UHGV virus genome: UHGV-0004901
Reading direction: 5' to 3' (one strand)
From: a virus
DNA: 38,194 nt
This document shows positions 193 through 38,115 of this stretch, piece by piece. The notes beneath the pieces are model-generated. The model worked only from the letters and a program-made list of their open reading frames with translations, did no database searches and was not told the origin of the DNA. A program made the position numbers and the translations under genes. The stretch's first letter is position 1; each line of letters starts with the position of its first letter.

Positions 193-1443
193 GTGCTTAC
201 CGATACAAAATTAAAAAACCTCAAGCCGCAGGACAAACTGTATAAGGTCTCCGATCGTGACGGGCTGTATGTAGCTGTGCTTACGTCAGGCACGGTCTCG
301 TTTCGCTATGACTACCGTATCAACGGTCGCCGCGAAACACTGGTAATCGGGCAGTATGGGCGTGACGGTATCAGCCTGGCAGAAGCGCGAGAAGAACTGA
401 TTGCTGCAAAGAAGCTGCTTAAAGCAGGCCAGTCGCCGGCTGCGGCTAAACGTGACGGTATCAAAAAGATTCGTGGTGCCGAGACGTTTGCGGTACATAC
501 CGACAGTTATATGAAACACGTCATCCTGGCTGACAGTACCCGCGCAATGAAGCAGGCGGTGATCGACCGTGACATACTTCCGGTTCTTGGCAACAAAATG
601 ATGGCTGAAATTACCACATCGATGGTTCGTGATTTGTGTGACCGGATTGTCGAACGCGGTGGTCGGGCAACAGCAGTACAGGCCAGGGAGATTATCAGCA
701 GCGTATACCGTCACGCCAATGACCGTGGTCATGGTTTGTTTAATCCTGCGGCTGACATTAAACCTTCGTCTATCGCCATATTTAAACCACGAGAGCGAAC
801 ACTGACACCAGAAGAAATTGGCCTGTTCTTCCGCACGCTGGATGCCATTGGTGCTATGGGCACTATGAAAATGGCTTTAAAACTGGTGCTTATCACTATG
901 GTTCGTAAGGGCGAATTCACCAATGCAACGTGGGATGAAATAGATTTTAAAAAATGGACATGGACAATTCCTCCAGACCGCATGAAGGGAAGCCGGGCGC
1001 ACGTTATTTACCTGCCTAAACAGGCACAGGATATATTGGTCGGGTTGCAGATGTGCGCTGGTGGAAGTGAATATCTGGTTCCTGGTCGTTACAATTTCCG
1101 GAAGCCATTATCTAATGCCGCGCTGAACTCTCTGATCGACAGAACGGTGAAAATAATAAATGAAGATGGTGAGCATATTCAGGACTTCACCGTACACGAT
1201 ATGCGCCGTACAGCCAGTACGTTGTTGCATGAGGCTGGTTATCCTTCAGACTGGATTGAAAAGGCTCTGGCACATGAGCAGAAAGGTGTGCGCGCCGTAT
1301 ATAACAAAGCGGAATACGCCAGACAGCGCGCCTACATGTTGCAGCAGTGGGCCGATATGATTGATTCCTGGATTAACGGGGAGCATACGGATCTGATTCC
1401 GTTCTCCCCGTCGAAGTTTGAGAAGTGGATGGCGGGGGAATAA
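193..1443 (+). CDS. int: Tyrosine integrase, P4-like, with N-terminal arm-binding domain (GTG start)
   Basis: 416-aa ORF; N-terminus LTDTKLKNLKPQDKLYKVSDRDGLYVAV...FRYDYRINGRRETL is typical of P4-type integrase arm domains; C-terminal ...HDMRRTASTLL...Y catalytic region. Confidence 0.9.
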   Translation: MLTDTKLKNLKPQDKLYKVSDRDGLYVAVLTSGTVSFRYDYRINGRRETLVIGQYGRDGISLAEAREELIAAKKLLKAGQSPAAAKRDGIKKIRGAETFAVHTDSYMKHVILADSTRAMKQAVIDRDILPVLGNKMMAEITTSMVRDLCDRIVERGGRATAVQAREIISSVYRHANDRGHGLFNPAADIKPSSIAIFKPRERTLTPEEIGLFFRTLDAIGAMGTMKMALKLVLITMVRKGEFTNATWDEIDFKKWTWTIPPDRMKGSRAHVIYLPKQAQDILVGLQMCAGGSEYLVPGRYNFRKPLSNAALNSLIDRTVKIINEDGEHIQDFTVHDMRRTASTLLHEAGYPSDWIEKALAHEQKGVRAVYNKAEYARQRAYMLQQWADMIDSWINGEHTDLIPFSPSKFEKWMAGE

Positions 1444-1446
1444 CGT

Positions 1447-1641
1447 TTAATAGTTCTGCTGATTTTCTTCCATCTCGGCTTCTGCTGCCAGTGATTCAAT
1501 TTTATCTGTGAATATTGCTGACAGTGTTGCAAATTCAGCATCAGTGACAGCGGGAATTGGAACAAACCTGATCCCGCTGTGTGCAAGCATGTTTGCAGTT
1601 TCAAGGCATTTCCTTAAATCTGCTGGTGATGCCCTGTTCAT
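1447..1641 (-). CDS. Hypothetical small protein (64 aa), translationally coupled to the upstream methyltransferase gene (ATGA overlap)
   Basis: In-frame ATG at 1641 overlaps the methyltransferase stop; the longer 1447..1761 track ORF overlaps the methyltransferase in another frame. Confidence 0.35.
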   Translation of the reverse strand: MNRASPADLRKCLETANMLAHSGIRFVPIPAVTDAEFATLSAIFTDKIESLAAEAEMEENQQNY

Positions 1642-2288
1642 GCTGCACGCTCCCGCCCCTGGTTGTCTGTTGGTGACAGCGGAGCATTGCTGAATGCATT
1701 TGTTAATCCGGCAATATCCAACGCGTATCCTGGGTGTAGTTGCACTGCCGGGTCTTCGCACTGATTACCCCAAACATCGAAGCCATGAGACGACTGGCGG
1801 GCGAACAGTTCAATGCGAGAAACATCGCCTAACAATTGCACAAGTTTTTCACGAACGACATCTGGTTTTCTTGAATGCTCAAGCCGCGGTGCGGTAAATG
1901 ACTGAACGATACCTGCATTAATGCGCGGAGGTAGTTTTCCCTTTACCGCAAACAGGCAATCTTCACTGTTGGCGCGAGTCATGTGTCCCATCCCCATAAC
2001 CAGTTTATCTGGTTGTCGACTACCACATTTTATCCACGTGAAGCCCTTCATGGTCATCAGACGGAATCCCCAGGCTTCAACAACTTTTAGTGCTTCGAGT
2101 GGTTGTGTTGGCACCCACCACATGGCCAACAGACAGTTTTCACCGGCCAAATCCCACACAGGAAGGCGGCAGATATCCAGCACACTCATAACCGGATATT
2201 TAAAACCAGCACCGCGATTACCATCTGTGGCTTTGTCCCGGTATGCCCAGGGTGGATCTGCATAGATTAGTGTGTATTTCTTAGTCAT
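1638..2288 (-). CDS. DNA N6-adenine methyltransferase, MT-A70-like (orphan phage methylase)
   Basis: MTKKYTLIYADPPWAY... contains the DPPW catalytic motif; start trimmed to the ATG at 2288. Confidence 0.85.
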   Translation of the reverse strand: MTKKYTLIYADPPWAYRDKATDGNRGAGFKYPVMSVLDICRLPVWDLAGENCLLAMWWVPTQPLEALKVVEAWGFRLMTMKGFTWIKCGSRQPDKLVMGMGHMTRANSEDCLFAVKGKLPPRINAGIVQSFTAPRLEHSRKPDVVREKLVQLLGDVSRIELFARQSSHGFDVWGNQCEDPAVQLHPGYALDIAGLTNAFSNAPLSPTDNQGRERAA

Positions 2289-2580
2289 AAACCACCCCAC
2301 AACATCCTATGCCGCTATAGTCGCCACGGCGAAGGCCGTTACCTTTTGTGATACATTGGTCCCTGCGAACCGCGATCCTTGCACGTTCAACATCACCAGA
2401 AGCAACATCCATACACTGAAGCCAAAGGTGGGCGGCAACGCGGAACTGCCCTTTTTTCTCTCTTTCAATCGCGCGTTTTTCGATCTCTATCGCCGCAGGA
2501 GTAACGGCAACAACCTTTGAAGGGCTGCGCATTGAAACCTTGTTCATGTGATATTTTTCAAGTCGGCTTAACTTTCTCAC
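2281..2580 (-). CDS. Hypothetical protein
   Basis: ORF in the leftward operon, overlaps the methyltransferase start by 8 bp; no recognisable motif. Confidence 0.3.
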   Translation of the reverse strand: MRKLSRLEKYHMNKVSMRSPSKVVAVTPAAIEIEKRAIEREKKGQFRVAAHLWLQCMDVASGDVERARIAVRRDQCITKGNGLRRGDYSGIGCCGVVYD

Positions 2581-2689: not shown

Positions 2690-2938
2690 TCATGCCGCGT
2701 TGCTCACAGGACGATATACACGTTGCTGAACAGGAGGTTTTTTACCCTGGAACTCTGCCGGGCTTGCTGCCTGACGTTCATCAAGCCAACGCTCAACTTC
2801 ATCACGGTTCCATGCGCAGCGTTTATCGGTGATATACCAGCGTTTAGGAAATTCCCCTGCGCGCTCCATACGGTCGATAGTGCTCCATGACAGTGGCACC
2901 ACCGCCAGGAGTTCCTTCTTACCTAATGCACCTTTCAT
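2690..2938 (-). CDS. AlpA-family small DNA-binding protein (excisionase/regulator-like)
   Basis: 82-aa protein; LSWSTIDRMERAGEFPKRWYITDKRCAWNRDEVERWL resembles AlpA/Vis-type HTH. Confidence 0.6.
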   Translation of the reverse strand: MKGALGKKELLAVVPLSWSTIDRMERAGEFPKRWYITDKRCAWNRDEVERWLDERQAASPAEFQGKKPPVQQRVYRPVSNAA

Positions 2939-2987
2939 AAATACCTCTCTTGGTTGCAGTGCGGCGCGCGTGGCGCCGCGGTGGTGG

Positions 2988-3869
2988 TTACATAGATGTT
3001 TCGTTTAATTCTTCCCGACGAACGCTGTAAACGTCGGTGGCTTTTGCCAGCAGTTCGTCATCATCTGAAAGTTTTTGTGCAATGTATTTGTAAGCCTTAT
3101 CCAGTTCGGAGACAGTGCTGTAATTCATCGCTGCGCTGGTAAAGGCCATCAGCATTTCTTCTGGATCACGGCTATCCGCTTTACGCGTTTGCTCATCAGG
3201 CTTTTTCACTGGTTTAGCGTTGATCAGACTGTTCATTCCCGCAGCAGTAGTCGTTTGCGGAGTAATGTCTCGCTCAACGCGCGGTGCCGTTTCCTGTAAT
3301 TCGTCAGGGGTGTAAACACCGAGAAGTACATCAGGAGCGTGCAGGCGAGCCCATCGTTTCGTGCAAAGATAGGCAAGCTGCTGGCGCGGATCCTGTTCCC
3401 ACAATGGAGAGTTACGCACTCCGGCTTGCGCCATACTGATGGTAAGCTCACGGGGTTCTGCTTCTCCTTTAAGAACTGCTGACACAGTTACCGTCAGATT
3501 CGGTGATTTATCTGTTTTGCCGTTAACATTCGACCAGTCACCGCTCCAGCGATAATTCAGGCGTGTCGCTAGCAGGCTGGAAGAGGATACGACCGCGTTT
3601 ACCAACTGTGCTTCGTAGCCTAACGTTCCGTTTACCACATGCGTTTTCTGCGCCACGGCGAAAGGGTTCATTCCCCACTGTGCCGCCTGCATGGTCACCG
3701 CCAGACAATCGGCAGGTTTGCCTTCAAGATGTTTCGGTACAGTCGCTTTGCTTTGTGACATCAACTCCGCGAAACGCACCAGTTGATTCATGCCCTCCGG
3801 GCTGAAGATTGCCGCAGCAGTACCTACAGTTGCGCCTGGTTGTGATGTGATTGCGATATCATTGCTCAT
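2988..3869 (-). CDS. recT: RecT-family single-strand annealing recombinase
   Basis: 293-aa ORF; central region ...QAAQWGMNPFAVAQKTHVVNGTLGYEAQL... is typical of RecT; overlaps the upstream exonuclease gene by 4 bp. Confidence 0.85.
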   Translation of the reverse strand: MSNDIAITSQPGATVGTAAAIFSPEGMNQLVRFAELMSQSKATVPKHLEGKPADCLAVTMQAAQWGMNPFAVAQKTHVVNGTLGYEAQLVNAVVSSSSLLATRLNYRWSGDWSNVNGKTDKSPNLTVTVSAVLKGEAEPRELTISMAQAGVRNSPLWEQDPRQQLAYLCTKRWARLHAPDVLLGVYTPDELQETAPRVERDITPQTTTAAGMNSLINAKPVKKPDEQTRKADSRDPEEMLMAFTSAAMNYSTVSELDKAYKYIAQKLSDDDELLAKATDVYSVRREELNETSM

Positions 3870-4687
3870 ACGTACATATCCTGTTTACGTGCCCAGTCAG
3901 GGCGTTTAATAATTTCCACGCCGCCCCATTCATCATTGATGCGGCATTCGTGATAGGTATTCAGATCCCGGCGGAACAGAGCGTGCCCGGCATCGACATC
4001 CGGCGCATCCAGCTCGAACACGCGTACCGGATACCGACCACAATCAATGCTTTCGCTCACGGCAAGAAAGAAAAAACCATGCGACTGACCAGTAACCCTC
4101 ATCGCTCCTTCGCGGTACATTGCGTCCTGCACGTGGTAGCGGAATTCCTCGATGTGGCGTGCAAAACGGTCCATATCTGCAACCTTTTTCACGTCGACGA
4201 TCACGTTGTGCTCGTTCAGCCATTTGTCTGGACGAATGCGGCACAACTCACCAGTCTCTTCATCATTCCAGTACATTGATGCTTCGCAGTAACCAGGTGC
4301 TTCCAGCATCCAGCGTGCCGCCGGGTGAGCCATTGCGCTATCACGCATCAGCTCCAGTTTTCGCCACTGCTCTGCATCAAGTACCGAAATCCCCATATCC
4401 GCTACATCACGAATAAATGCCTCTTCGTCAGCTTTACCTTGTTTTGTCCGACGATCGAATTTCGGTGAAACGATGAAGCGTTTGTCAAACTCTCCAGGTT
4501 CCAGAAGCAGACAGTGCAGAGCAGTACCCATGTCCAGTGCAGACTTCTTCTCTTCGTCTTCCGGAGCAGCCTTCACCCATTTCAGAAGGGCAGGGTTCTT
4601 AGCCACCATATCTAGCTGCGACTTACTCACGCCGTCACCGGCGTGGTAGTCCTCGTTGCTGATATCGAAATAAATTCCCGGATTCAT
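3866..4687 (-). CDS. RecE-like PD-(D/E)XK exonuclease (partner of RecT)
   Basis: 273 aa; N-terminal DISNEDYHAG motif and downstream D..E.K-type motif (IVDVKKV); operon partner of recT. Confidence 0.75.
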   Translation of the reverse strand: MNPGIYFDISNEDYHAGDGVSKSQLDMVAKNPALLKWVKAAPEDEEKKSALDMGTALHCLLLEPGEFDKRFIVSPKFDRRTKQGKADEEAFIRDVADMGISVLDAEQWRKLELMRDSAMAHPAARWMLEAPGYCEASMYWNDEETGELCRIRPDKWLNEHNVIVDVKKVADMDRFARHIEEFRYHVQDAMYREGAMRVTGQSHGFFFLAVSESIDCGRYPVRVFELDAPDVDAGHALFRRDLNTYHECRINDEWGGVEIIKRPDWARKQDMYV

Positions 4688-4983
4688 GCCGCGTCCCTCT
4701 GCCCATCAATCTGATCAGCCAGATCCCAGCGGGCGATAATTGCCATTGCCTCGCGCCGGTAGGCATCCATTAGTTCTTCGAACTCAGGGCTGTCTTTAGC
4801 GGCCTCCAGTACTTCCTGGCGAACGCCTTTAACTGTTACAACGTCGAAAGTTGATGCCAGTTGATGAAGCCGGATACTCTCAATCAGTTCAACTTGTCGG
4901 TCATATAGCTGTTCTGACAGGCGGTAGTCCTTGTCGAATGCCAGCATGATTTTTTGAAGATTTTTCTGCTGATTAACGTTCAT
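4684..4983 (-). CDS. Hypothetical early protein (99 aa from ATG 4983)
   Basis: Strong SD (GGGAGGG) upstream of the ATG at 4983; track ORF trimmed. Confidence 0.5.
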   Translation of the reverse strand: MNVNQQKNLQKIMLAFDKDYRLSEQLYDRQVELIESIRLHQLASTFDVVTVKGVRQEVLEAAKDSPEFEELMDAYRREAMAIIARWDLADQIDGQRDAA

Positions 4984-4985
4984 TA

Positions 4986-5138
4986 TCAGCCCTCCCATAT
5001 CTCGTTATCGTTGGCCACATCGCGAGCTTCTTTGCTGACGAAAGCCCACTTAATGCCTTCCTGTAAGGTGCGGAACTTCCAGCTCATGAATCCGCATGCA
5101 GTAACGCAGTACCAACCGTTGATGATTTTCCACTGCAT
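4986..5138 (-). CDS. Small protein (50 aa), first gene of the leftward early operon
   Basis: ORF below the track cutoff: MQWKIINGWYCVTACGFMSWKFRTLQEGIKWAFVSKEARDVANDNEIWEG; SD GAGGT 8 nt upstream, overlapping an operator half-site. Confidence 0.35.
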   Translation of the reverse strand: MQWKIINGWYCVTACGFMSWKFRTLQEGIKWAFVSKEARDVANDNEIWEG

Positions 5139-5144
5139 AACTTG

Positions 5145-5234
5145 TTACCTCGGTCTGTTACCGTTGAGGTAATAATTATGCGTATCTGGTTTGATGTCAA
5201 TAGATATGAGTTAAAAAAATTACCCATTAGGTAA
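5145..5234. promoter_or_regulatory. Leftward early promoter/operator region (OL-like): TTACCGTTGAGGTAA (5158..5172), TTACCCATTAGGTAA (5220..5234) and an extra TTACCTC half-site (5145..5151)
   Basis: Palindromes read directly; lie between the repressor-gene terminator and the first leftward gene. Confidence 0.6.
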
Positions 5235-5243
5235 TCGAATAGG

Positions 5244-5271
5244 CAATAAAAAAGCCGCCAGAAGGCGGCTT
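5244..5271 (-). terminator. Rho-independent terminator after the repressor gene
   Basis: Minus-strand hairpin AAGCCGCC-TTCT-GGCGGCTT followed by a T-run. Confidence 0.65.
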
Positions 5272-5291
5272 ACTTACTGAAAAATATGATT

Positions 5292-5876
5292 TTATTGTTT
5301 GTTTTTTTCGTTCTGGTTGATGACAAATTCAATGTAACTTTCGATCTTTGCTTTCTCGGTTTCGGGTAACAATGCGTAGCGCGAGCGATCATAGTTGATG
5401 GTCGCAGGGTCGTGCGGGTGAATCAGTAATTCATAGCCGTGACGCCCGAATGCGGATGCAACATTCTCCAGGGTGGAAATGGAAACGCTGACCTCATTGT
5501 TTAACAGGCGGCTGATTGTCACCTGGGCGACGCCGGATGCGCGGTGTAGTTTTCCCTGCGTTGAAAGGTCGCGGCTTTCGCTCATCCAGCGTTCCAGGTT
5601 GTGAGCCGCCAGCTGACCTATATCACTCGGGCCGACAGGCTGAAAACCTTCCTGAGAAAGCGAGCGATCGATATCAAGCCAGTTACGGGGTTTATTGGCG
5701 GCAGCTTCAATTTTTCGCGCAACCTGGTCGCCGATAACCTTCTTGCCAAGAGCCCAGCGGTTTACCAGATTTGCCTGAGTTCCAAGTTTTTCTGCCATCC
5801 GCGTCTGAACACCATTGAATTCACGGTCGATCAAGTCGTTGAGATTTTGCCTGCGGACGTCCTGGATACTTTTCAT
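5292..5876 (-). CDS. Immunity repressor (CI-like) with two HTH domains and no S24 peptidase domain
   Basis: 194 aa; two XRE-type HTH-like segments (…TRMAEKLGTQANLVNRWALGKK… and …ASGVAQVTISRLLNNE…); divergent from the Cro-like gene across an operator cluster. Confidence 0.7.
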   Translation of the reverse strand: MKSIQDVRRQNLNDLIDREFNGVQTRMAEKLGTQANLVNRWALGKKVIGDQVARKIEAAANKPRNWLDIDRSLSQEGFQPVGPSDIGQLAAHNLERWMSESRDLSTQGKLHRASGVAQVTISRLLNNEVSVSISTLENVASAFGRHGYELLIHPHDPATINYDRSRYALLPETEKAKIESYIEFVINQNEKNKQ

Positions 5877-5931
5877 TTTCTGGAAAATCGCCTCATATAT
5901 GAATCAGTAGATGATTCAATTTAAAGCAATA

Positions 5932-5994
5932 TTACCCAACAGGTAAATGCACCTCATAGGTAACTATCCTTGATTTTTGTTACCTTATGGGTGA
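5932..5994. promoter_or_regulatory. Immunity switch operators (OR-like): TTACCCAACAGGTAA (5932..5946), GCACCTCATAGGTAA (5949..5963), TTACCTTATGGGTGA (5980..5994)
   Basis: Three tandem 15-bp palindromic sites between the divergent repressor and Cro-like genes. Confidence 0.7.
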
Positions 5995-6030
5995 ATATTT
6001 ATTATCTGAAATAAATATCAGGCAATAGCT

Positions 6031-6261
6031 ATGAGCGATAACGGACATTTCGATTTCAAAAAGCACTGGCTTGCACTTACTCCGGATGAGCGTGAAGCCT
6101 TCGCACAGGAAGCCGGAACGACGAGTCACTATATCCAGACTCACTTAACAGGTAAGCGCAAAATGCCAGGTAAAGTATTGATGAATGGGCTTTTTAAAGC
6201 CTGTAAAACAAGACAATGGCTGCGCTTAAAAGCAGAACTGGCATACTTCTTCTACTCATGA
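6031..6261 (+). CDS. Cro-like small DNA-binding protein
   Basis: 76 aa, divergent from the repressor across the operator cluster; HTH-like segment LTPDEREAFAQEAGTTSHYIQTHLTGKR. Confidence 0.55.
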   Translation: MSDNGHFDFKKHWLALTPDEREAFAQEAGTTSHYIQTHLTGKRKMPGKVLMNGLFKACKTRQWLRLKAELAYFFYS

Positions 6262-6282
6262 TATCCAGCTACAACCCTCTGT

Positions 6283-6308
6283 AGACCGCCACCCGGCGGT
6301 CTTTTCAT
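6283..6308 (+). terminator. Rho-independent terminator after the Cro-like gene (tR1-like)
   Basis: GACCGCC-ACCC-GGCGGTC hairpin followed by TTTTC. Confidence 0.6.
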
Positions 6309-6316
6309 ATCTATTC

Positions 6317-6331
6317 GTACCTCAAAGGTAA
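6317..6331. promoter_or_regulatory. Operator-like palindrome GTACCTCAAAGGTAA downstream of the Cro terminator
   Basis: Direct reading. Confidence 0.45.
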
Positions 6332-6411
6332 TAAAAAACCAAATCTGGTTGATCTTTTTTTTGTGTCAGCACAAAATGACCGTAATCCCAATACTAATAA
6401 CAGGGCTTACC

Positions 6412-6612
6412 ATGGAAATCATTACACGTATTGATGCCGCAAAGCGCGGACTTAAACGCTACTACACCGGAAAAACATGTAAGCACGGACATGACAGTGA
6501 ACGCTGGGTTTACAACGGACACTGTGTTGAGTGCACCATGGAATCAAACCGTCGTATCAGGGCAGAGATTAAGCAGATCATGATTAATTCCTCCCCACAA
6601 CATTCAAGCTGA
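6412..6612 (+). CDS. Small Cys/His-rich protein in the cII position (hypothetical, possible zinc-binding)
   Basis: MEIITRIDAAKRGLKRYYTGKTCKHGHDSERWVYNGHCVEC...; start trimmed to ATG 6412. Confidence 0.4.
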   Translation: MEIITRIDAAKRGLKRYYTGKTCKHGHDSERWVYNGHCVECTMESNRRIRAEIKQIMINSSPQHSS

Positions 6613-6627
6613 TAGCGGAGATTAATC

Positions 6628-7467
6628 ATGAGCAGACATGCAACAGATTGGGCCTGGGAGACAGATCCAGGTAGCTCATCATTAAAGCTCATACTGCTCT
6701 CGATGGCTGACAGAGCCGATGAATATAACCTCTGCTACCCCAGCATAGAACGCCTCGTTAAAGACACTTGCCTGAATAAAAAAACCGTGCAGGCCGGGCT
6801 TATATCGCTCATGAAAATGGGGCTTATTTCAGATACCGGAGAGAGAAAGGGAGCGACAAAAAGAGTGCGGGTTTTCTCTCTTAATATAACCAAAAACGGG
6901 AACATTAAAGGCAACCGAGAGGGGGGCAATGAACCCGAAAACGGTAATGTTACCGAAAACGGGAATATACCCAAAAACGGGATGTTGAATGATCCCAAAA
7001 ACGGGATGTTGAATGATCCCAAAAACGGGATGTTGAATGATCCCAAAAACGGGATCCAGAACCAGTCATATAACCAGTCATTTAACCAAGAGAGGGAGAG
7101 CAGGACAAAAAACGGGGATTCTGTGCATCATGACCCCGGCGCAAACAACGCCGTGATGAATAACTTTGTTCCTCCTGGTGGGCCAGGGCAATTAGGCAAA
7201 TTTGTCATGCATGAACAATGGCAGCCATCAGATGACTTTCTTCGGAAAAGCTCATTGCAGGGGATCTACCTGGACAGTCTGCCAACGGCACAGGAACTTG
7301 CAGAGTTCAGAATTTACTGGATGGCTGAGGGTAAGGCATACCATCAGGCACAGTGGGAGCAGAAGCTGGCAAGGCGGCTGCAGATTAGCAGACAGAAGCA
7401 ATCAACATTACCTGATAACAACGTTCCGCACTGGAACAGCCCTGAAGCATGGGAGGATTTCTTGTGA
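6628..7467 (+). CDS. Replication initiator, lambda O-like (N-terminal winged-helix domain) with internal iterons
   Basis: N-terminal HTH-like domain; internal PKNGMLND repeats encoded by DNA iterons; followed by and overlapping a lambda P homolog. Confidence 0.75.
   Translation: MSRHATDWAWETDPGSSSLKLILLSMADRADEYNLCYPSIERLVKDTCLNKKTVQAGLISLMKMGLISDTGERKGATKRVRVFSLNITKNGNIKGNREGGNEPENGNVTENGNIPKNGMLNDPKNGMLNDPKNGMLNDPKNGIQNQSYNQSFNQERESRTKNGDSVHHDPGANNAVMNNFVPPGGPGQLGKFVMHEQWQPSDDFLRKSSLQGIYLDSLPTAQELAEFRIYWMAEGKAYHQAQWEQKLARRLQISRQKQSTLPDNNVPHWNSPEAWEDFL
6890..7060. repeat. Iteron array (putative origin of replication): 7 copies of CC(C/G)AAAACGG(G/T)A at 18-24 bp spacing, including 3 perfect 24-bp tandem copies
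   Basis: AAAACGG cores at 6893, 6938, 6956, 6974, 6998, 7022, 7046; followed by a second short direct repeat AACCAGTCAT(A/T)TAACCA (7059..7090). Confidence 0.7.
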
Positions 7468-8249: not shown

Positions 8250-8286
8250 TACCAGCGCGATAGCGCATTTTTTTACGCTCAAATAA

Positions 8287-8363: not shown

Positions 8364-8366
8364 ATC

Positions 8367-9936: not shown

Positions 9937-9937
9937 G

Positions 9938-31325: not shown

Positions 31326-31333
31326 GTGACTAC

Positions 31334-31630
31334 ATGCAAGCGATAGGATTCATTGTTTATATCGTCGTTGGTCTTTTTCAGTTGGCAGCAATTATGGCTG
31401 GGCTTGAATCATGGTGGGGATTGCACTGGATAATTGCAGCCCCCATTGCTTTCATCGTGAGCTATATTCCATTTGTTGGAGCGATTGTTGGTATGGTTGG
31501 CGCTGTGGATGTATGGCGGTGGGAGTGGTGGCAGGCTGGCCTTCTCTTCTTTGGTGGGATCATCTTTGCTATTGTCTGCGGTGGAATGTCATCATTTTTC
31601 GAATGGCTATCATTCAGAAAAGGAACGTGA
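31334..31630 (+). CDS. Small integral membrane protein (3-4 predicted TM segments); candidate holin or exclusion protein
   Basis: 98 aa, hydrophobic throughout, Trp-rich loops; stop codon embedded in a GTGACATGTCAC palindrome. Confidence 0.5.
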   Translation: MQAIGFIVYIVVGLFQLAAIMAGLESWWGLHWIIAAPIAFIVSYIPFVGAIVGMVGAVDVWRWEWWQAGLLFFGGIIFAIVCGGMSSFFEWLSFRKGT

Positions 31631-31638
31631 CATGTCAC
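31627..31638. repeat. 12-bp perfect palindrome GTGACATGTCAC (copy 3 of 3)
   Basis: Direct reading; overlaps the TGA stop of the 31334..31630 gene in the same register as copy 1. Confidence 0.8.
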
Positions 31639-31663
31639 AGGCCGCTTTCGCGGCCTTGTTTTT
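31639..31663 (+). terminator. Rho-independent terminator ending the late/moron transcript
   Basis: AGGCCGC-TTTC-GCGGCCT hairpin followed by TGTTTTT. Confidence 0.7.
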
Positions 31664-31823
31664 AACGAATGCCACCGCCGCCCGGGCGGGAATCCGCAGA
31701 ACGCCCACCGCAGCGGGAGCCGTCAGCGGCAGTATCGCTGTCGTGCTGACAACGACCGGCAAAGGCCTGAGTTGAAGCTACCAGAGACAACAAAACGAAC
31801 AGTGCAGCAAATGCTTTTTTCAT
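31662..31823 (-). CDS. Small protein with Sec-type signal peptide (53 aa), speculative
   Basis: MKKAFAALFVLLSLVASTQAFA then a 31-aa Gly/Arg/Cys-containing tail; possible promoter TTGACG-16-TATAGA upstream; weak SD. Confidence 0.3.
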   Translation of the reverse strand: MKKAFAALFVLLSLVASTQAFAGRCQHDSDTAADGSRCGGRSADSRPGGGGIR

Positions 31824-31894
31824 TGTGACATTTCCATCTATAAGCCACCTCAATGTGGCGTCAATGAGTGTAGCACTGACTTTTGTTTCGTCCA

Positions 31895-31917
31895 CAAAAA
31901 AGCCCTCGCCGCGGGCT
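31895..31917 (-). terminator. Rho-independent terminator after the 31917..32456 gene
   Basis: Minus-strand AGCCC-GCGGCGA-GGGCT hairpin followed by a T6 run. Confidence 0.6.
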
Positions 31918-32456
31918 TACCAAAACTTGTACCACGGGGATTTATCCTTCAATGGACAATCCTTCCATCGTGTGGCTAACCATTCATATTCTTTAAAATA
32001 TGTGTTTATGTTTTCTTTTTCTCTAATAGCTTGTATAAGAGGTAGCGCAATCTGATAGTTATTTACAACGGAGCTGTAAAATACTTCCTTAATCATGGTC
32101 TCATCATAAGTTTTCCGCTTCACGCTCACAGCCATGCGTTCGTAGAAACCTAGACAGTAAATTATTTCTCTCTTCTCTATCTTTTCTTCATCCGTAAGAT
32201 CAGCCTGCCCATTGCTTGGATACATATAAGAGCGGAATGATTTGTTCGACTCGTGAATGCGGCGCATAGTAGATAGGCCTTTCTTATAATCTACATCAAA
32301 CCTGCTTTCACCAAGGAATACTGAAGTGTGTACTTTTCTCGCTGTATTTACATTATAAATAATAGTAGCGATAGCTATGAACAAGCCAAGCGAAACCGCG
32401 ACTGCACTTACGATTTGAGCCACAGCCATGGCAAATTGCATTTCTTCACTTAACAC
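31917..32456 (-). CDS. Membrane-anchored protein of unknown function (single N-terminal TM, about 36% GC); candidate superinfection-exclusion/defence protein
   Basis: GTG start with SD GGAG; TM segment AMAVAQIVSAVAVSLGLFIAIATII; AT-rich; occupies the position held by sieA in P22-type genomes. Confidence 0.55.
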   Translation of the reverse strand: MLSEEMQFAMAVAQIVSAVAVSLGLFIAIATIIYNVNTARKVHTSVFLGESRFDVDYKKGLSTMRRIHESNKSFRSYMYPSNGQADLTDEEKIEKREIIYCLGFYERMAVSVKRKTYDETMIKEVFYSSVVNNYQIALPLIQAIREKENINTYFKEYEWLATRWKDCPLKDKSPWYKFW

Positions 32457-32474
32457 AAACTGTCTCCAGACATG

Positions 32475-32496
32475 AAAACGGGGCCTAATGGCCCCG
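32475..32496 (-). terminator. Hairpin/terminator between the antirepressor gene and the 31917..32456 gene
   Basis: Minus-strand ACGGGGCC-ATTA-GGCCCCGT hairpin followed by TTTT. Confidence 0.5.
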
Positions 32497-32585
32497 TCAT
32501 TAAACTATCCGAATGTTAAACGCCTTCGTACTCGTCAAATTTTCTCATGTGGGCTCCTCCTGTATCGGTGCCTAATCGCTATGGA

Positions 32586-32600
32586 TCACCCGTAAGGTAA
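32586..32600. promoter_or_regulatory. Operator-like palindrome TCACCCGTAAGGTAA
   Basis: Direct reading. Confidence 0.45.
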
Positions 32601-32672
32601 TAGTACTCTATTCACCACCCTGTCTGCAATCGTACAGAATTATTTAAAAGCACATCCATGTGCCACCGCCCG

Positions 32673-33383
32673 TCAGAAGAACCCTGCCTTGTCGTTGATG
32701 TATTCCGCGTGCGTCTGGATATCACGCAGGCATTTGCTCACACCGACGATGTAGCAGAACATGGTGGTCAGCTCCGCCGCCGCGCCCGATACGTCGTGCC
32801 CGTCTTCCTGTAACTGGTTCAGCAGATTCATCAGCAGTGAGTTCTCCGTCAGGCCGAGAACACCAGACGGCGAGTGAATCAGGCTGCGGTAGCCGGGCTT
32901 CAGCGGGGCGCTGTAGGTTTTGTTCTCTATCTTCATTGCCTGCATCACTGCTGATGCTGTGGCGTTTGCAACCTGGTCGGCAACCATCTTTATGCGTTCT
33001 TCCTGCGGGAGCGAGTTTTTAATGTAACTTCCGGTGCGGCGGATCTGAGGAAGAACCTCACCTGTAACCCATTTACGAAAGCGGTAGGGGATAGTGCCTG
33101 GTGTCACTGCGTCGCGGCAGCGGAGGATCAGTGTGTAGAGGCCTGACTCGGAGATGATGTTGATCTCTTTTACTCGGCTGTCAAAAATTGCACGATGTTC
33201 ATGCCCTATGTTGAACATAGACCTTTCATCATCATCCAGTTTTTCAAGTGCTTGGGTGACGTTTTGGATACGCAGCGCACTACAAACGTCTTGGGCTACA
33301 AACCATGGTTGGCCATCGATAATGATGGAACGGATAGGGTTAACAGATTCAAATTTGAAGATGGCAGTTTGAGCATTAGCCAT
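32673..33383 (-). CDS. ant: Antirepressor with Bro-N/KilA-N-type N-terminal domain
   Basis: ...FESVNPIRSIIIDGQPWFVAQDVCSALRIQN...GLYTLILRCRDA... matches Bro-N; start at ATG 33383 with SD GGAG. Confidence 0.8.
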   Translation of the reverse strand: MANAQTAIFKFESVNPIRSIIIDGQPWFVAQDVCSALRIQNVTQALEKLDDDERSMFNIGHEHRAIFDSRVKEINIISESGLYTLILRCRDAVTPGTIPYRFRKWVTGEVLPQIRRTGSYIKNSLPQEERIKMVADQVANATASAVMQAMKIENKTYSAPLKPGYRSLIHSPSGVLGLTENSLLMNLLNQLQEDGHDVSGAAAELTTMFCYIVGVSKCLRDIQTHAEYINDKAGFF

Positions 33384-33652
33384 GGTGGTTATCTCCACTT
33401 AGTGATTTTAATCACCACCGCAACGCCAATTACTGGTGGTGAACTGGACAAGGTTGGCGTACCGGCCTAAGTGGTACCGGCGTCCTTTCGGACCCCTGCC
33501 CAGCCCACCATAATTCGGATATAGCTGTGCTTAACGCATAAAAAAACCACGTCTGGCGTGGTATGCGCCACTTAGTAACTCGGGACGCCAATCCCGGCAC
33601 TGGATTTTGCCAGTACCCGATTACTATGGCACAAGAGGAGTGCGATGTAAAT

Positions 33653-33760
33653 TTACCGCAAAGGTAATGATAAACGCGAAGAAATATTAAAATCAACCGT
33701 ATTTGGTTGGTTGCGTTTAACGCTTGATCACCTGAAAGCAAGATATTACCTTTAAGGTAA
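33653..33760. promoter_or_regulatory. Two operator palindromes in the divergent ant / 33781 promoter region: TTACCGCAAAGGTAA (33653..33667) and TTACCTTTAAGGTAA (33746..33760)
   Basis: Direct reading. Confidence 0.55.
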
Positions 33761-33780
33761 TGTTATTGTGAGGAAAAGCA

Positions 33781-34509
33781 ATGGAAGTTTTCTGGATAGT
33801 TGTTGGTGTGGTTGCGGTGATTATTTATGTTATCAACCAGAACAAGACTAAGATCTCTGATCGTACGGTCGTTAATCATAACAAAACGATAAAGACCGAA
33901 GATGGGGAGATAACGATTAATCGTACACAGGTGATAGAACACACCTCTACTCAGTTTCAAAAAACTGGAGGTAATGCGCCTAATATTTCCGCACCTCCTG
34001 CTTATGATAGTGCGGTAATCCAGACATATTATAAACAGCAGGAGTTAGCAAAAGAGAGGCAACTGATTCAGCCAAAGCCGTTTACAGCTGAGCTTCCACC
34101 TGGAGTGTCAACGCGTCCGGCATATCATGGAAGATTCCCTGGTGATGACATATCGTCTCAGTCATCTAAAAAAGCACCTCAGGCAGTATCAGAGCCAGCA
34201 AGAATACCTTCTGTATCGCCGCCAAAAGAAGAATCAGCTAACAGAGTTTCAAGTGGTAGCAAGCAGTGCTTGCGATGCAGAATAAACCTACCATATGAAA
34301 AATTCAGGAAATCGTCAAAAAATCCAGATGGATTGACTAAGTGGTGTGCAAGGTGTCTCGATGGCCCAAAGAATACACGCCATATGAAGTGGTGCCCAAT
34401 TTGTAATGTCCGCAGAAAACGAACCAGCTTTTACCCTAATAATCAAAATGCGGACGGATTAATGGCATGGTGCAAAACGTGCTGGGATGAGCACAAAGCG
34501 AAACGATAG
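33781..34509 (+). CDS. Membrane-anchored protein with two tandem CxxC...DGLxxWCxxC zinc-ribbon-like repeats (unknown function)
   Basis: N-terminal TM MEVFWIVVGVVAVIIYVI; C-terminal repeats CLRCRINLPYEKFRKSSKNPDGLTKWCARC and CPICNVRRKRTSFYPNNQNADGLMAWCKTC. Confidence 0.6.
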   Translation: MEVFWIVVGVVAVIIYVINQNKTKISDRTVVNHNKTIKTEDGEITINRTQVIEHTSTQFQKTGGNAPNISAPPAYDSAVIQTYYKQQELAKERQLIQPKPFTAELPPGVSTRPAYHGRFPGDDISSQSSKKAPQAVSEPARIPSVSPPKEESANRVSSGSKQCLRCRINLPYEKFRKSSKNPDGLTKWCARCLDGPKNTRHMKWCPICNVRRKRTSFYPNNQNADGLMAWCKTCWDEHKAKR

Positions 34510-34533
34510 GCCGCTCTTGCGGCCTTTAAATTT
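34509..34533. terminator. Hairpin/terminator between convergent genes
   Basis: GGCCGC-TCTT-GCGGCC followed by TTTAAATTT. Confidence 0.5.
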
Positions 34534-34789
34534 ACCGGGTTTGTTTTCGTAATTGTTCGGCACAATAGTCGAGATGTGTTTGCAGATCCCGCATAGACAT
34601 CTGTGACCTGGTGACGTAGTTAATCAGTGCAGTCAGTTCGGCAAGTGGGCCATCGACATTAAATCCATCCTTATCGAGATCCCGGAGTAATTTCATCAAG
34701 TGCGATCCCTCCACCAGTGATCTGACGCCTCCCGGCGTGTGAATCCTTTCGGTAAATCCGTCTTCCAGTGGATAGTGATACTGCTGCAT
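34532..34789 (-). CDS. Antirepressor C-terminal-domain paralog (85 aa, stand-alone)
   Basis: ...GGVRSLVEGSHLMKLLRDLDKDGFNVDGPLAELTALINYV...RDLQTH... aligns by eye with the Ant C-terminus ...SGVLGLTENSLLMNLLNQLQEDGHDVSGAAAELTTMFCYI...RDIQTH...; strong SD GGAGAAG before ATG 34789. Confidence 0.5.
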   Translation of the reverse strand: MQQYHYPLEDGFTERIHTPGGVRSLVEGSHLMKLLRDLDKDGFNVDGPLAELTALINYVTRSQMSMRDLQTHLDYCAEQLRKQTR

Positions 34790-34865
34790 CTTATCTTCTC
34801 CATACGATAACTGTATATTTATACAGTAACAAATAATTTGTTTGCTATCCAGCACGTTTTGCAAA

Positions 34866-34984: not shown

Positions 34985-37900
34985 ATGACGGTCTCAACCG
35001 AAGTTGACCACAACGAATACACCGGTAACGGAGTTACGACATCATTTCCGTATACCTTCCGTATTTTCAAAAAATCCGACCTGGTTGTTCAGGTGTCTGA
35101 TCTGAACGGGAACGTAACAGAATTGGTGCTTGATACCGGTTATAAGGTAACTGGAGCGGGCACTTATAGTGGCGGTGAAGTGGTTCTTCCGTCGCCGCTT
35201 GCTGCTGGCTGGCGAATTACGATAGAGCGTGTGCTTGATGTGGTGCAGGAGACTGATCTTCGCAATCAGGGAAAATTTTTCCCCGAAGTTCATGAGGATG
35301 CATTCGACTACCTGACGATGCTGATCCAGCGATGTTTTGGGTGGTTCAGACGTGCATTGATGAAGCCCTCGCTGCTTGCAAAATATTACGATGCAAAGCA
35401 AAACAAAATTTCTAACCTTGCAGATCCATCACTTGAGCAGGACGCTGTAAATAATCGTTCAATGCGTAAGTATGTGGATGCTGCAATTGCTGGTGTTGTC
35501 GGTGGTTTCGGATGGTTTATCCAGTATGGTGCTGGAGCTGTATACAGAACGTTCCAGGATAAGATGCGTGATACAGTAAGTGTGAAAGATTATGCTGCTG
35601 TTGGAGATGGTATAACTGATGATACGAATTCTTTTATTCTGGCTCCTGAAAATGCTTATGTTCCACCTGGAGTATATCTTGTTGATACGTTGAAAGTAGA
35701 TGTAAGCAAAATGACAGGGGAAGGGATGATTCTTTCCAAAACTGGTCATCTACTTTCTCTTCGTAATAATATCAGTAATACATTGGTGCAACGCCATTTA
35801 ATGGAAGCATTTATGGGTTTTGGTGAGTCCCAAGTTTTTCCAAATGGTGAGGCTACAAGTCAAGGGTGTGCTTATGCGAATTATAATGGTAAAAAATTAT
35901 TTATTTTACAAACGGTTGTTGGCAGTGCTGAAGGTAGTGGAAACTTCAACTCTAAAGTAACATCAGCTGGTGACTTCATAACCGGAATTGAATATGAAAT
36001 AGTAAGTATAGGTTCAACTGATTTTACAACTATAGGGGCTGCTGAAAATAATATTGGTGTACGATTTACGGCGAATGGTCCAGGGGTTGGTACAGGAACA
36101 GCAGCTGCTTTAGAGAAGCGCAGGCTGGTTGAATACTCGTTTTCTGATGATGGTTCAGTAGTGCAAAATACTACTTACACTGCACCAATATTAAATAACC
36201 ATCAGGGAATATCTACGATAGTTATTGATGATGACCTTTTTATTTATACCCAAATGGTTACCCAGCCTACATATCGAGGAAATGATGGAGGAAAAGGTTA
36301 TTCAAAATTAATTTGGAAAGGGAGCAGCACATCTGAATCTGATGTGATTACTTATCAGCTTTTTGGATATTCTGGTTCTGGTCATCCTTATCAGAATTAT
36401 AATTCAGCAACCCCGTGTGTATCTTCAGATGGAAGGTATGTTGTTCTTGTTGCAACTGATAGCACAGCAGATGATGATGCCTGGTATGTATTTGTTTACA
36501 GCAGGATACACGTAGAATCCCTTGACAATAGTTTGGAAGCAAGACCATTGTATTATTTCAGGATTCCACATCCGCAGCGCGGAACTGATACTCATGTTAT
36601 TCAAGATGTTGCCAGTGATGGTAAGTACATCTATATATTAAGGGGATATACACATCCGTTCATGTTGCATATTATTCAGAAGTTTGATTATTCTGGTAAT
36701 ATTCTTGCTGAATTTTCATTTGAGGGGGCTCGTTCTCTTTATGGATACAAAAATCTTATGGATAATCCAAAGTATGGGACCCCCCATTCATTTGAACCTG
36801 AAGGTATAGACATGTATGAAGGAGACCTTATTATTCTAACTATGGATAATTGGGATTCTGGAGCTTCTATTATAACTTACAAAGGAAAGAATTATTCCGC
36901 TTTTTCTACTGCTTCTGGTATTGCTCCGGATGATCCCGATGGATTTAGAATGTGGGCGATAACAAATAAAGTTAGTGGTGGGGAATACTCGAATGATAAA
37001 AAGTACAGCGATGGAGTGTATTCGAAACGAGGAAAACAGATATTTCTTATTTCACAATCGCGTGGGGTTGCTAATGAACTCCCATTGAATTCCGCCTTGA
37101 CAACTCGTGTTAATAACTCACCACTTTCTTCTATAAGTTCTGCTTTTGATGTTTCCTTTAAATTAGGAGAGAACTGGATATTGGGGGGGTATTCAGAAAA
37201 TACTTCAGAATATAAAAAAGCCATTCAGTATGCTAGTAATGGTGCTTTTCGTGTTCATGATTCCCGCAGAGAATCTGACAATAATAAGTACTGGTCTATA
37301 CGTGGTGGATATGATGTAACACCGCAGATACAAGAAGTTGTTGAATTTAGGTGTCGTGGTACTGTAGAAAATGGGGCTGGCTGGAATGCTTATGGTTCTA
37401 ATGACTATCGCTTACCAAACAGGTTTCGTATGTTCCCTGGCGGGAGCTTTGGCGGTACTCAAGTTCTTGTCGAGATAGCTAATCCAGTTAATGATAATCC
37501 TTATTTTGCTCCCACAGGGCAGATAGGAACAGTTAATAATGGTACAACGACAGCATACTGGAATAACATATATAGCAAGAATGCTGTCACTGTTGTTTCA
37601 GATGTTAATTACAAAGATGAATTCTCGGATATACCGACTGAACTTATTGAAGCCGTGGGTAGTGTAAAATTTCAAATGTGGAAGATGAAGGATGAAATAT
37701 TACGAAAAGGAAGTGAACATGCCAGATATCATTTTGGAGTTGTAGCGCAGCAAGTTAAGGATGCAATTACAAAAGCTGGTCTTGATTGGAAGAAGTATGG
37801 TCTTATTACGTATGAAGAAACCAGTGTTTTGGTAAGAGAAAACGAATCTGGTGATTTTTATCCTATTGATATTGAGTCTTGTCCAATTCCAGTTAATGAA

Positions 37901-38059
37901 TTTGGGATTATTAAATTAATAGAAGGTGCAGATGAAATTAAAGAAGATAAACATGGAAATTTGGTATTGACAAGATCTATTTACATGATGCGTATGGATG
38001 AATTTGAAATAATAAGGATGGCATATCAAGAAAAGAAAATAGCGGATCTAATAAGTTAA
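34985..38059 (+). CDS. Tail fibre/tailspike protein: T7 gp17-like N-terminal virion-attachment domain, AT-rich distal receptor-binding region, C-terminal chaperone-like segment
   Basis: N-terminus ...TGNGVTTSFPYTFRIFKKSDLVVQV...RITIERVLDVVQETDLRNQGKFFP resembles the T7 tail fibre N-terminal domain; GC drops from about 50% to about 36% after roughly 35.6 kb; C-terminal ...SDVNYKDEF...YHFGVVAQQVKD... resembles intramolecular chaperone (S74-like) domains. Confidence 0.8.
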   Translation: MTVSTEVDHNEYTGNGVTTSFPYTFRIFKKSDLVVQVSDLNGNVTELVLDTGYKVTGAGTYSGGEVVLPSPLAAGWRITIERVLDVVQETDLRNQGKFFPEVHEDAFDYLTMLIQRCFGWFRRALMKPSLLAKYYDAKQNKISNLADPSLEQDAVNNRSMRKYVDAAIAGVVGGFGWFIQYGAGAVYRTFQDKMRDTVSVKDYAAVGDGITDDTNSFILAPENAYVPPGVYLVDTLKVDVSKMTGEGMILSKTGHLLSLRNNISNTLVQRHLMEAFMGFGESQVFPNGEATSQGCAYANYNGKKLFILQTVVGSAEGSGNFNSKVTSAGDFITGIEYEIVSIGSTDFTTIGAAENNIGVRFTANGPGVGTGTAAALEKRRLVEYSFSDDGSVVQNTTYTAPILNNHQGISTIVIDDDLFIYTQMVTQPTYRGNDGGKGYSKLIWKGSSTSESDVITYQLFGYSGSGHPYQNYNSATPCVSSDGRYVVLVATDSTADDDAWYVFVYSRIHVESLDNSLEARPLYYFRIPHPQRGTDTHVIQDVASDGKYIYILRGYTHPFMLHIIQKFDYSGNILAEFSFEGARSLYGYKNLMDNPKYGTPHSFEPEGIDMYEGDLIILTMDNWDSGASIITYKGKNYSAFSTASGIAPDDPDGFRMWAITNKVSGGEYSNDKKYSDGVYSKRGKQIFLISQSRGVANELPLNSALTTRVNNSPLSSISSAFDVSFKLGENWILGGYSENTSEYKKAIQYASNGAFRVHDSRRESDNNKYWSIRGGYDVTPQIQEVVEFRCRGTVENGAGWNAYGSNDYRLPNRFRMFPGGSFGGTQVLVEIANPVNDNPYFAPTGQIGTVNNGTTTAYWNNIYSKNAVTVVSDVNYKDEFSDIPTELIEAVGSVKFQMWKMKDEILRKGSEHARYHFGVVAQQVKDAITKAGLDWKKYGLITYEETSVLVRENESGDFYPIDIESCPIPVNEFGIIKLIEGADEIKEDKHGNLVLTRSIYMMRMDEFEIIRMAYQEKKIADLIS

Positions 38060-38078
38060 TGCTATAATAAATAATATG

Positions 38079-38115
38079 TAATGGCCGCGCATTACGGCCA
38101 TTATTATAATTATAT
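38079..38115 (+). terminator. Rho-independent terminator after the tail fibre gene
   Basis: TAATGGCCG-CGCATTA-CGGCCATTA hairpin followed by a T/A-rich run. Confidence 0.6.

Follow-up and report, generated by a model that had tools for sequence, protein, structure and literature searches.

Temperate podoviruses of the genus Uetakevirus, whose type species is the Salmonella phage epsilon15 (a model system in electron cryo-microscopy), combine early genes arranged in the style of lambda with a tail distantly related to that of T7, and this combination is already known from the well-studied epsilon15/phiV10 group. The distant relationship of the epsilon15 tail and internal proteins to those of T7 has been published (Hardies 2016, PMC4819975); in the same study a homologue of internal protein C could not be confirmed, and the epsilon15 terminase and capsid grouped with those of siphoviruses. 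Epsilon15 and the Bordetella phage BPP-1 have in common a distinct topology of the HK97-like capsid fold and a jellyroll cement protein (PMC3863775), and virion structures have been solved for BPP-1 and for the Cobetia phage Carin-1. The Uetakeviruses of Escherichia coli (phiV10, TL-2011b, PAS61, ZX5, phiv142-3, and HEMP4) share with the DNA analyzed here the guaA attachment core, the gene order, and a tRNA-Arg gene, and differ from it in the ejection proteins, accessory region, and tailspike body; ZX5 integrates at the 3' end of guaA, with ATTGAGTGGGAATGATT as the core of its attP and attB sites (PMC9782041). Here we analyze UHGV-0004901, a stretch of viral DNA of 38,194 nucleotides (hereafter, the window), and conclude, with a probability that we put at roughly 0.93, that it represents ~92% of a temperate podovirus prophage of the epsilon15/phiV10-like genus Uetakevirus that appears to be intact and comes from the guaA 3' end of E. 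coli.

Placement and integration at guaA

Whole-genome comparison placed the window among known Uetakevirus relatives. In a megablast search of phage records, positions 1-25000 matched phiv142-3, vB_EcoP_PAS61, vB_EcoP_ZX5, HEMP4, and TL-2011b at 97-98% DNA identity over 80-87% of their length (97.7% over 87% for PAS61), and epsilon15 at 75-77% identity over 26-34% of the query; PAS61 and epsilon15 are both classified as Uetakevirus. The window carries ~48 genes, most of them 98-100% identical to their counterparts in TL-2011b or PAS61 and 36-95% identical to those of epsilon15, and their order is the same as in the annotations of epsilon15, TL-2011b, and PAS61, down to the seroconversion slot and the lysis cassette that follow the tailspike. 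Proteins at 98-100% identity in the TL-2011b/PAS61 group include the integrase, RecET, repressor, terminase, portal, capsid, adaptor, nozzle, and internal proteins A and B. None of the data conflict with an assignment to Uetakevirus.

An initial annotation of the window, made from its letters alone, had listed the genes in this same order and had read them as a temperate mosaic in which a lambdoid early and immunity module was fused to a T7-like virion module, a type of phage it regarded as comparatively little studied. The temperate lambda/T7 architecture stands, and the outline is correct, but it is not new: the layout described as a fusion is conserved across Uetakevirus, the epsilon15 group is well characterized, and its relationship to T7 was described in the work cited above (PMC4819975). 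Prophages of this layout belong under Uetakevirus and should not be flagged as new lambda/T7 hybrids, and correct annotation is the main use of the present comparison.

The integration context could be read directly from a complete chromosome. Between guaA and yfgI of E. coli SW070919 lies a prophage that is 100% identical to the window apart from one IS3 insertion, and the same gene order is found there. The features at the left end are as follows.

1-2, plus strand: final 2 nucleotides of the 17-bp attL core ATTGAGTGGGAATGATT, the remainder of which is the guaA 3' end just left of the window
193-1443, plus strand: tyrosine integrase of the P4 type with an arm-binding domain (PF13356 Arm-DNA-bind_3, PF22022 Phage_int_M, PF00589 Phage_integrase)

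At the SW070919 locus (L003) the window begins one base past the guaA stop codon, and the 17-bp direct repeat ATTGAGTGGGAATGATT occurs at 3153-3169, at the end of guaA, and again at 45867-45883, ~42.7 kb downstream and before yfgI. The core is the one reported for ZX5, and it regenerates the end of guaA. Since the repeats flank the locus ~42.7 kb apart, the prophage measures ~41.4 kb when the insertion sequence (IS) is excluded, and the window accounts for ~38.2 kb of this. The integrase, which is 99% identical to those of TL-2011b and PAS61 and 87% identical to that of epsilon15, would insert the prophage at the 3' end of guaA. The extent of 193-38115 initially given to the prophage holds for the part within the window, but the attL core straddles position 1 and ~3.2 kb of prophage lie beyond 38194; at the SW070919 locus these carry a convergent acyltransferase gene, two holin genes, a GH19 endolysin, a DUF2514 spanin, and attR.

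Three points weigh against this placement. First, attR and the lysis genes lie outside the window, and the apparent completeness of the prophage is taken from the identical SW070919 locus. Second, the tailspike gene of that reference copy is disrupted by an IS3-family element (L003 38745-40062, corresponding to window position ~35580); the SW070919 copy therefore probably cannot form infectious particles, while the tailspike of the window is intact. Third, the ejection genes (24.5-31 kb) and the tailspike body are far from those of every named phage, and at species level the window corresponds to no described phage.

Early arm and immunity

The early arm and the two genes of the immunity switch are arranged as follows.

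1447-2532, minus strand: DUF1382 protein (lambda orf63-like), MT-A70 adenine methyltransferase, and PerC-like activator (Pfam; PADLOC MTase_II)
2690-2938, minus strand: AlpA-family excisionase/regulator (PF05930, phrog_66)
2988-3869, minus strand: RecT annealing protein (one of a gene pair matching PF03837/PF12684 and phrog_561/phrog_412)
3866-4687, minus strand: RecE-type PD-(D/E)XK exonuclease (the other member of that pair)
5292-5876, minus strand: prophage repressor of 194 amino acids with a helix-turn-helix (HTH) domain (main match PF01381)
6031-6261, plus strand: cro-like regulator, divergent from the repressor (phrog_35, E 5e-12; 75% identical to epsilon15 gp39)
6628-7467, plus strand: replication initiator analogous to lambda O, with HTH_36 and DnaT domains (Pfam, PHROG)
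7464-8249, plus strand: helicase loader of the lambda-P family (PF06992, E 6e-57; 31% identical to lambda P)
8367-11877, plus strand: small early-right genes, including a DUF1064 resolvase-like protein, Ead/Ea22, DUF551, DUF4222, and a regulator at 11539-11877 (Pfam, PHROG)

Much of what the initial annotation had proposed for this arm was borne out: Pfam and PHROG matches agree with an integrase, a RecE/RecT pair, and a divergent repressor and cro, and the O- and P-like replication genes with iterons are likewise present. The initiator is of the HTH_36/DnaT type and does not belong to the lambda O family. A repeat search placed the iterons at 6882-7116, inside the initiator gene, as at least seven copies of CCCAAAAACGGGA that include a perfect 24-nucleotide tandem of 3.6 units. 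We hypothesize that the initiator binds the iterons in its own gene and recruits host DnaB through the lambda-P homologue, and that the RecET-type proteins supply recombination. The AlpA-family protein is 85% identical to epsilon15 gp33, which is annotated as an excisionase and transcriptional regulator. Relative to this arm, epsilon15 carries other RecET alleles and has no lambda-P homologue.

The resemblance to lambda lies in the layout, with a divergent repressor and cro, a recombination pair leftward of the immunity region, an iteron-bearing initiator followed by P, and small genes before the late region. The control logic is different. Transcription of the window's int gene runs toward the early-left operon, an S24 domain is missing from the repressor, predicted operators are dispersed over the genome, including positions before the late operons, and the lysis cassette follows the tailspike. 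In a tblastn comparison with lambda, only Int (22%), orf63/DUF1382 (50%), P (31%), and Ea22 (35%) showed resemblance; homologues of N, Q, cII, and cIII were not detected by this search, and no antiterminator family appeared in the Pfam and PHROG scans. Calling the small genes at 8367-11877 "nin-like," as had been done at first, fits their position only, as Ea22 was the sole lambda tblastn match in this interval and no nin homologue was found. A separate observation concerns the DUF1064 protein (8367-8711; phrog_190, "Holliday junction resolvase"), which gave a borderline tblastn match to the T7 gene 3 endonuclease I (41% over 44 amino acids, E 0.001), the sole match of any window protein to T7.

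The core of the early region, 2900-8400, matches only phage records of the Uetakevirus type. On this basis we regard the early arm as a stable part of the lineage and not as a recent lambdoid loan, and a recent lambdoid exchange in the immunity and replication core, which we had considered, was rejected for the same reason.

The repressor contains HTH domains only, with no S24 peptidase or autocleavage domain found in its 194 amino acids by Pfam, and it is 42% identical to epsilon15 gp38. It is expected to bind a palindrome, TTACCYNNNRGGTAA, which occurs at 11 sites in the window compared with 0.03 expected by chance, all of them intergenic or in promoters and at positions equivalent to those of the repressor sites in the epsilon15 annotation. 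These sites and the further elements of the predicted immunity system are listed below.

136: TTACCYNNNRGGTAA site before int
5158 and 5220: TTACCYNNNRGGTAA sites before the early-left operon
5932 and 6317: TTACCYNNNRGGTAA sites in the repressor/cro region
8287 and 8349: TTACCYNNNRGGTAA sites before the early-right genes
15109: TTACCYNNNRGGTAA site before the head operon
33653 and 33746: TTACCYNNNRGGTAA sites before the Ant unit
34866: TTACCYNNNRGGTAA site before the tailspike
32673-33383, minus strand: BRO-N/Ant antirepressor (Pfam, PHROGs)
33432-33515, minus strand: C4 antisense RNA (Rfam RF01695, 66 bits, over the gathering threshold)
33540-33616, minus strand: isrK RNA (Rfam RF01394, 63.5 bits, over the gathering threshold)
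34532-34789, minus strand: gene of 85 amino acids homologous to epsilon15 gp19 (phrog_450, with a weak match to phrog_1760 "anti-repressor"; 82% identical to gp19)
34809-34828: near-consensus LexA box AACTGTATATTTATACAGTA, 22 nucleotides upstream of the 85-amino-acid minus-strand gene (pattern search and reading of the sequence)

The palindrome is likely a genome-wide repressor operator, and since it precedes the int, early, head, Ant, and tailspike units, one protein could silence all operons directly. Because the repressor lacks an autocleavage domain, induction most likely proceeds via antirepressors, for which there are two candidates. The 85-amino-acid gene behind the LexA box is probably an antirepressor under SOS control; Kim and Ryu reportedly described in 2013 a LexA-controlled antirepressor in the epsilon15-like phage SPC32H. 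The other candidate is the BRO-N/Ant gene, which has the C4 and isrK RNAs directly upstream and forms with them, as predicted from these matches, an RNA-controlled antirepressor unit that resembles P1 immI and is situated within the late region. The occurrence of a LexA-boxed small gene and a C4/isrK-controlled Ant in one lineage would provide a compact system for studying antirepressor-based induction. For ZX5, overexpression of the repressor and the anti-repressor shifted the balance between lysis and lysogeny (PMC9782041).

Virion genes and their relationship to T7

The virion genes, together with two further genes that lie among those for the head, are as follows.

11918-12592, plus strand: terminase small subunit (PF03592)
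12589-14064, plus strand: terminase large subunit (phrog_2; 95% identical to epsilon15)
14155-14511, minus strand: gene of the Gp49/Sf6 gp66 family (PF13876)
14710-14786, minus strand: tRNA-Arg(TCT) (ARAGORN, Rfam)
15435-17114, plus strand: portal (PF12236, E 2e-187; Carin-1 portal 8CK0, E 6e-179)
17111-17407, plus strand: small protein of the Bbp19 family (PF25181)
17410-18105, plus strand: putative capsid assembly protein, labeled "protease" in databases (phrog_458 "protease")
18120-19106, plus strand: major capsid protein of the epsilon15/BPP-1 type (PF20911 [GP7], E 4e-149)
19158-19595, plus strand: Bbp16-type cement protein (PF21190, E 5e-47)
19606-19941, plus strand: homologue of epsilon15 gp10, a capsid protein in 3J40 (phrog_590; 40% identical to gp10)
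19998-20603, plus strand: tail adaptor (tubular protein A) with a T7 gp11-type fold (AlphaFold2 model, pLDDT 87.8; Foldseek)
20603-23074, plus strand: tail nozzle (tubular protein B) with a T7 gp12-type fold (AlphaFold2 model, pLDDT 94.3; Foldseek)
23074-23538, plus strand: internal virion protein A (one of a pair matching phrog_308/phrog_418)
23538-24083, plus strand: internal virion protein B, T7 gp14 family (PF24072, 31.2 bits against a cutoff of 27; the other member of that pair)
24083-30952, plus strand: three large ejection proteins of 873, 565, and 849 amino acids (phrog_1044, phrog_3003, phrog_684)
34985-38059, plus strand: tailspike, made up of an epsilon15-group N-terminal anchor (residues ~1-210), a receptor-binding body of a novel kind, and an S74 chaperone domain at the C terminus (PF13884)

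The genes follow one another as initially proposed, from the portal through the capsid assembly protein, the capsid, the adaptor, and the nozzle to the internal proteins, one of which bears an SLT domain, and the tailspike, and the likeness of two proteins to T7 gp8 and gp14 was substantiated at the family level. T7 gp8-gp17 and the window proteins were scanned against the same Pfam library, in which the portal and T7 gp8 both match PF12236 (E 3e-113 for gp8) and internal protein B and gp14 both fall in PF24072. Direct similarity is another matter: none of the 48 window proteins gave a significant match to 19 T7 proteins by BLASTP or phmmer, which leads us to reject the description "T7-like" at the sequence level. 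The T7 families PF05396 (scaffold), PF21703 (capsid), PF17212 (Tube), PF25675 (nozzle), PF11090 (gp13), and PF03906 (fiber N-terminal domain) were likewise without a match among the window proteins, and scans of the structural proteins against NCBIfam gave no informative match. The affinity to T7 is remote, is evident at the level of families and folds, is limited to the portal, tail, and ejection proteins, and is already published.

The head is not T7-like. The capsid, which the initial annotation had counted among the T7-like proteins, belongs to PF20911 and is of the BPP-1/epsilon15 type, as are both accessory proteins and the terminase; a sequence search of the PDB placed BPP-1 3J4U (E 6e-129) ahead of Carin-1 (8CJZ) and epsilon15 gp7 3J40 (1e-84), and the capsid is 63% identical to that of BPP-1 and 43% identical to that of epsilon15. 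BPP-1 and Carin-1 have the capsid, Bbp16, and Bbp19 families in common with the window, and the Carin-1 structures 8CK0 and 8CK1 are matched by the portal, connector, nozzle, and tailspike N terminus. Protein identities to these two phages are just 27-63%, and the early and replication modules differ, with BPP-1 encoding a DNA polymerase and a helicase of its own as well as a diversity-generating retroelement. Epsilon15 is collinear with the window and 81% identical in the portal, 85% in the adaptor, 88% in the nozzle, and 78% in the gp14-like protein.

The product of 17410-18105 deserves comment, as it is called a "protease" or "endoprotease" in most records across the epsilon15 supergroup and a "capsid assembly protein" in some relatives. 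A low-complexity stretch formed by its first 85 residues is acidic and rich in proline, and the protein contains a single histidine and a single cysteine. It matched no peptidase family and nothing in Pfam, NCBIfam, or a PDB sequence search, and an hhalign comparison with T7 gp9 likewise found nothing. Given this lack of family or structural support and the scaffold-like composition, the "protease" label may be a propagated misannotation, and reading the protein as a scaffold may be right.

In the tail, the designation of gp11- and gp12-like proteins holds for the fold but not for the family, since the corresponding Pfam models are unmatched and identity is 12-13%. The adaptor model retrieved the Carin-1 connector 8ck1_E (3e-16) and T7 gp11 7box_M (E 3e-6, TM-score 0.58-0.60, 13% identity) in Foldseek. 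The nozzle model retrieved Carin-1 8ck1_A (E 4e-86, TM-score 0.91) and five entries of T7 gp12 (E ~1e-24, TM-score 0.49-0.56, 12% identity), together with a weak match to P22 gp10 (E 1e-8, TMq 0.31, versus 0.5 for T7 gp12). A profile built from 77 nozzle homologues reached a cyanophage "tail tubular protein B" (9k09_U, E 2e-9) and aligned to residues 364-465 of T7 gp12, inside the region of epsilon15/T7 similarity delineated by Hardies (PMC4819975). The models thus indicate membership in the same superfamily as gp11 and gp12, but not in the same family.

The SLT transglycosylase domain (PF01464) occupies residues 233-339 of the 873-amino-acid protein, the first of the three large ejection proteins. 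The 849-amino-acid protein matched nothing in a PDB sequence search, and BLASTP, phmmer, and the PDB search revealed no link between T7 gp15 or gp16 and the window proteins beyond the SLT domain. Across 24500-30952, most of the SLT protein and the 565- and 849-amino-acid proteins have no counterpart, or one of <30% identity, in TL-2011b, PAS61, and epsilon15, and the G+C content within the ejection region rises to 0.61 at 27-28 kb.

The receptor-binding protein is a tailspike, and the T7-type N-terminal domain initially ascribed to it as a tail fiber was not recovered: PF03906 has no match in the tailspike (T7 gp17 scores 3e-74), BLASTP gave no match to gp17, and a shallow hhalign comparison placed residues 12-155 colinear with 11-149 of gp17 without significance (P 0.034, probability 1.5%). 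Its N terminus matches domain D1 of Carin-1 Dpo31 (1e-32), and homologues of its first 170 residues occur only in the supergroup to which the adaptor belongs (epsilon15, BPP-1, BcepC6B, VP5, Pelagibacter podophages, Xanthomonas CP2, and Carin-1), with none found among Autographiviridae. The body (35600-38059) shares no more than 32% identity with any phage record and resembles the neck appendage protein of Bacillus phage GA-1. Because the flanking genes are 98-100% identical to those of TL-2011b and PAS61 while these regions have diverged, the ejection and receptor-binding cassettes have evidently been swapped, and whole-cassette exchange of ejection proteins and tailspike among close Uetakeviruses bears on efforts to engineer the host range of phiV10-type reporter phages.

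We propose that the terminase fills an epsilon15/BPP-1-type capsid bearing accessory proteins and that a 12-fold portal, the gp11-type adaptor, and the gp12-type nozzle form a short tail with tailspikes, from which a podovirus-like particle would be predicted. During infection the gp14-like, SLT-bearing, and two large internal proteins would be ejected to form a bridge across the cell envelope, as happens with T7 and epsilon15. The window and T7 are alike in the order from portal to fiber, in PF12236 and PF24072, in the gp11 and gp12 folds, and in the presence of an SLT domain on one ejection protein. They differ in that the window has three large ejection proteins, the first of which bears the SLT domain (on gp16 in T7), other capsid, scaffold, and terminase families, additional capsid accessory proteins, a terminase before the portal and not after the fiber, and a tailspike in place of the fiber; the window is also temperate and has neither an RNA polymerase nor T7 replication genes.

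Taken literally, the initial reading implies a recent chimera, a lambdoid prophage in which the late region was replaced by a T7-like virion module. The lambda-like order of the early genes and the true lambda-P homologue favor such an origin, as do the T7-type families and folds in the tail and portal genes and the presence of some short segments of the first 25 kb in many Shiga toxin-converting lambdoid phages. We nevertheless consider a recent chimera very improbable. The same junctions and gene order are found in all Uetakeviruses including epsilon15, the interval 2900-8400 matches only that type of record, the head genes are of the BPP-1/epsilon15 type and not T7, and significant pairwise similarity to T7 structural, replication, and RNA polymerase proteins is lacking. 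Genus-wide junctions, an early core confined to Uetakevirus, remote similarity to T7, and a non-T7 head together indicate that any fusion was ancient and older than the genus.

A true temperate member of Autographiviridae, that is, a T7 relative that acquired an integrase in the manner of LUZ100 or Paku, would explain the collinear portal-to-fiber order and the gp8 and gp14 Pfam families held in common with T7, and temperate T7-like phages of this kind exist (PMC10134795, PMC9022590). The probability of this explanation is negligible. As the initial annotation had noted, no phage RNA polymerase is present: T7 gp1 has no significant match in the window, nor have the gp5 DNA polymerase and the gp4 primase-helicase, and all open reading frames of >800 amino acids are accounted for as nozzle, ejection protein, or tailspike. 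The ~3.2 kb missing from the window encode no RNA polymerase either, judging from the identical SW070919 locus, and the T7 scaffold, capsid, Tube, nozzle, gp13, and fiber N-terminal families are unmatched. The P22-like phages (Lederbergvirus) are the other classic temperate podoviruses of enterobacteria whose early region is lambdoid, and they likewise have tailspikes, seroconversion, and an immunity based on antirepressors. Assignment to them can hardly be entertained despite the weak structural match of the nozzle to P22 gp10, because the portal belongs to PF12236 with no P22-type portal match, the nozzle is far nearer to T7 gp12 (E 1e-24 versus 1e-8, TMq 0.5 versus 0.31), no P22-group phage is among the nucleotide matches listed, which are Uetakevirus-type records, and the prophage occupies the guaA site and has the att core of Uetakevirus.

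Accessory region and octanucleotide array

Between the ejection genes and the tailspike, and again at the right end of the window, the Uetakevirus prophage carries the following features.

30954-34509, mixed strands: accessory region of small open reading frames (Pfam, PHROGs, Rfam)
31917-32456, minus strand: DUF4760 protein in a moron slot, where TL-2011b has a YafO toxin
33781-34509, plus strand: Zn-ribbon protein of 242 amino acids in a moron slot, with motifs resembling endonuclease VII or Lar
38118-38194, minus strand: start of a (CTGTGCTG)n array, a perfect octanucleotide repeat that fills the last 77 bases of the window (tandem repeat search)

PADLOC, applied to the accessory genes, recognized the methyltransferase only and no defense system in the DUF4760, Zn-ribbon, and Gp49 slots.

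The 3' end of a hexapeptide acyltransferase gene consists of the (CTGTGCTG)n array; this gene is convergent with the tailspike and lies mostly outside the window, in the seroconversion slot. This acyltransferase and its 8-nucleotide array distinguish the prophage from other E. coli Uetakeviruses, and from epsilon15, in which O-antigen conversion depends on a polymerase and an inhibitor. The repeat encodes (TAAQQHSS)n in all frames. An ON/OFF frameshift switch was rejected as its function, given the 3'-terminal location of the array within the gene and the fact that all three frames specify the same octapeptide.

Among complete genomes the array comprises 50 copies in SW070919, 42 in MLI121, 43 in MLI114, 52 in E100341, 22 in PAR, 16 in AST205, and essentially none in EC0026B, and the range over all genomes is about 1-2, 15-16, 22, 27, 42, 43, 50, and 52 copies. 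The repeat was located at 42598-42997 of the SW070919 locus (L003) and at 9930-10265 and 12135-12550 of two further loci (L005 and L006, respectively). Over 9,295 bp a single (CTGTGCTG) unit is all that separates MLI114 from MLI121, which is evidence for slippage, and short-read assemblies break, gap, or end at the array. E. coli and its phages are not known to carry long contingency repeats with octanucleotide units.

The array is a fast-evolving simple-sequence locus and not assembly noise. We offer as an unlikely conjecture that its copy number tunes either the C-terminal (TAAQQHSS)n tail of the enzyme or transcriptional read-through between the convergent tailspike and acyltransferase genes, leading to O-antigen variation. 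If true, array copy number would give heritable yet reversible variation in O-antigen modification. The acyltransferase gene was found in 11 of the 5,426 complete E. coli genomes, and in PAR and EC0026B the same acyltransferase stands beside a different tailspike body.

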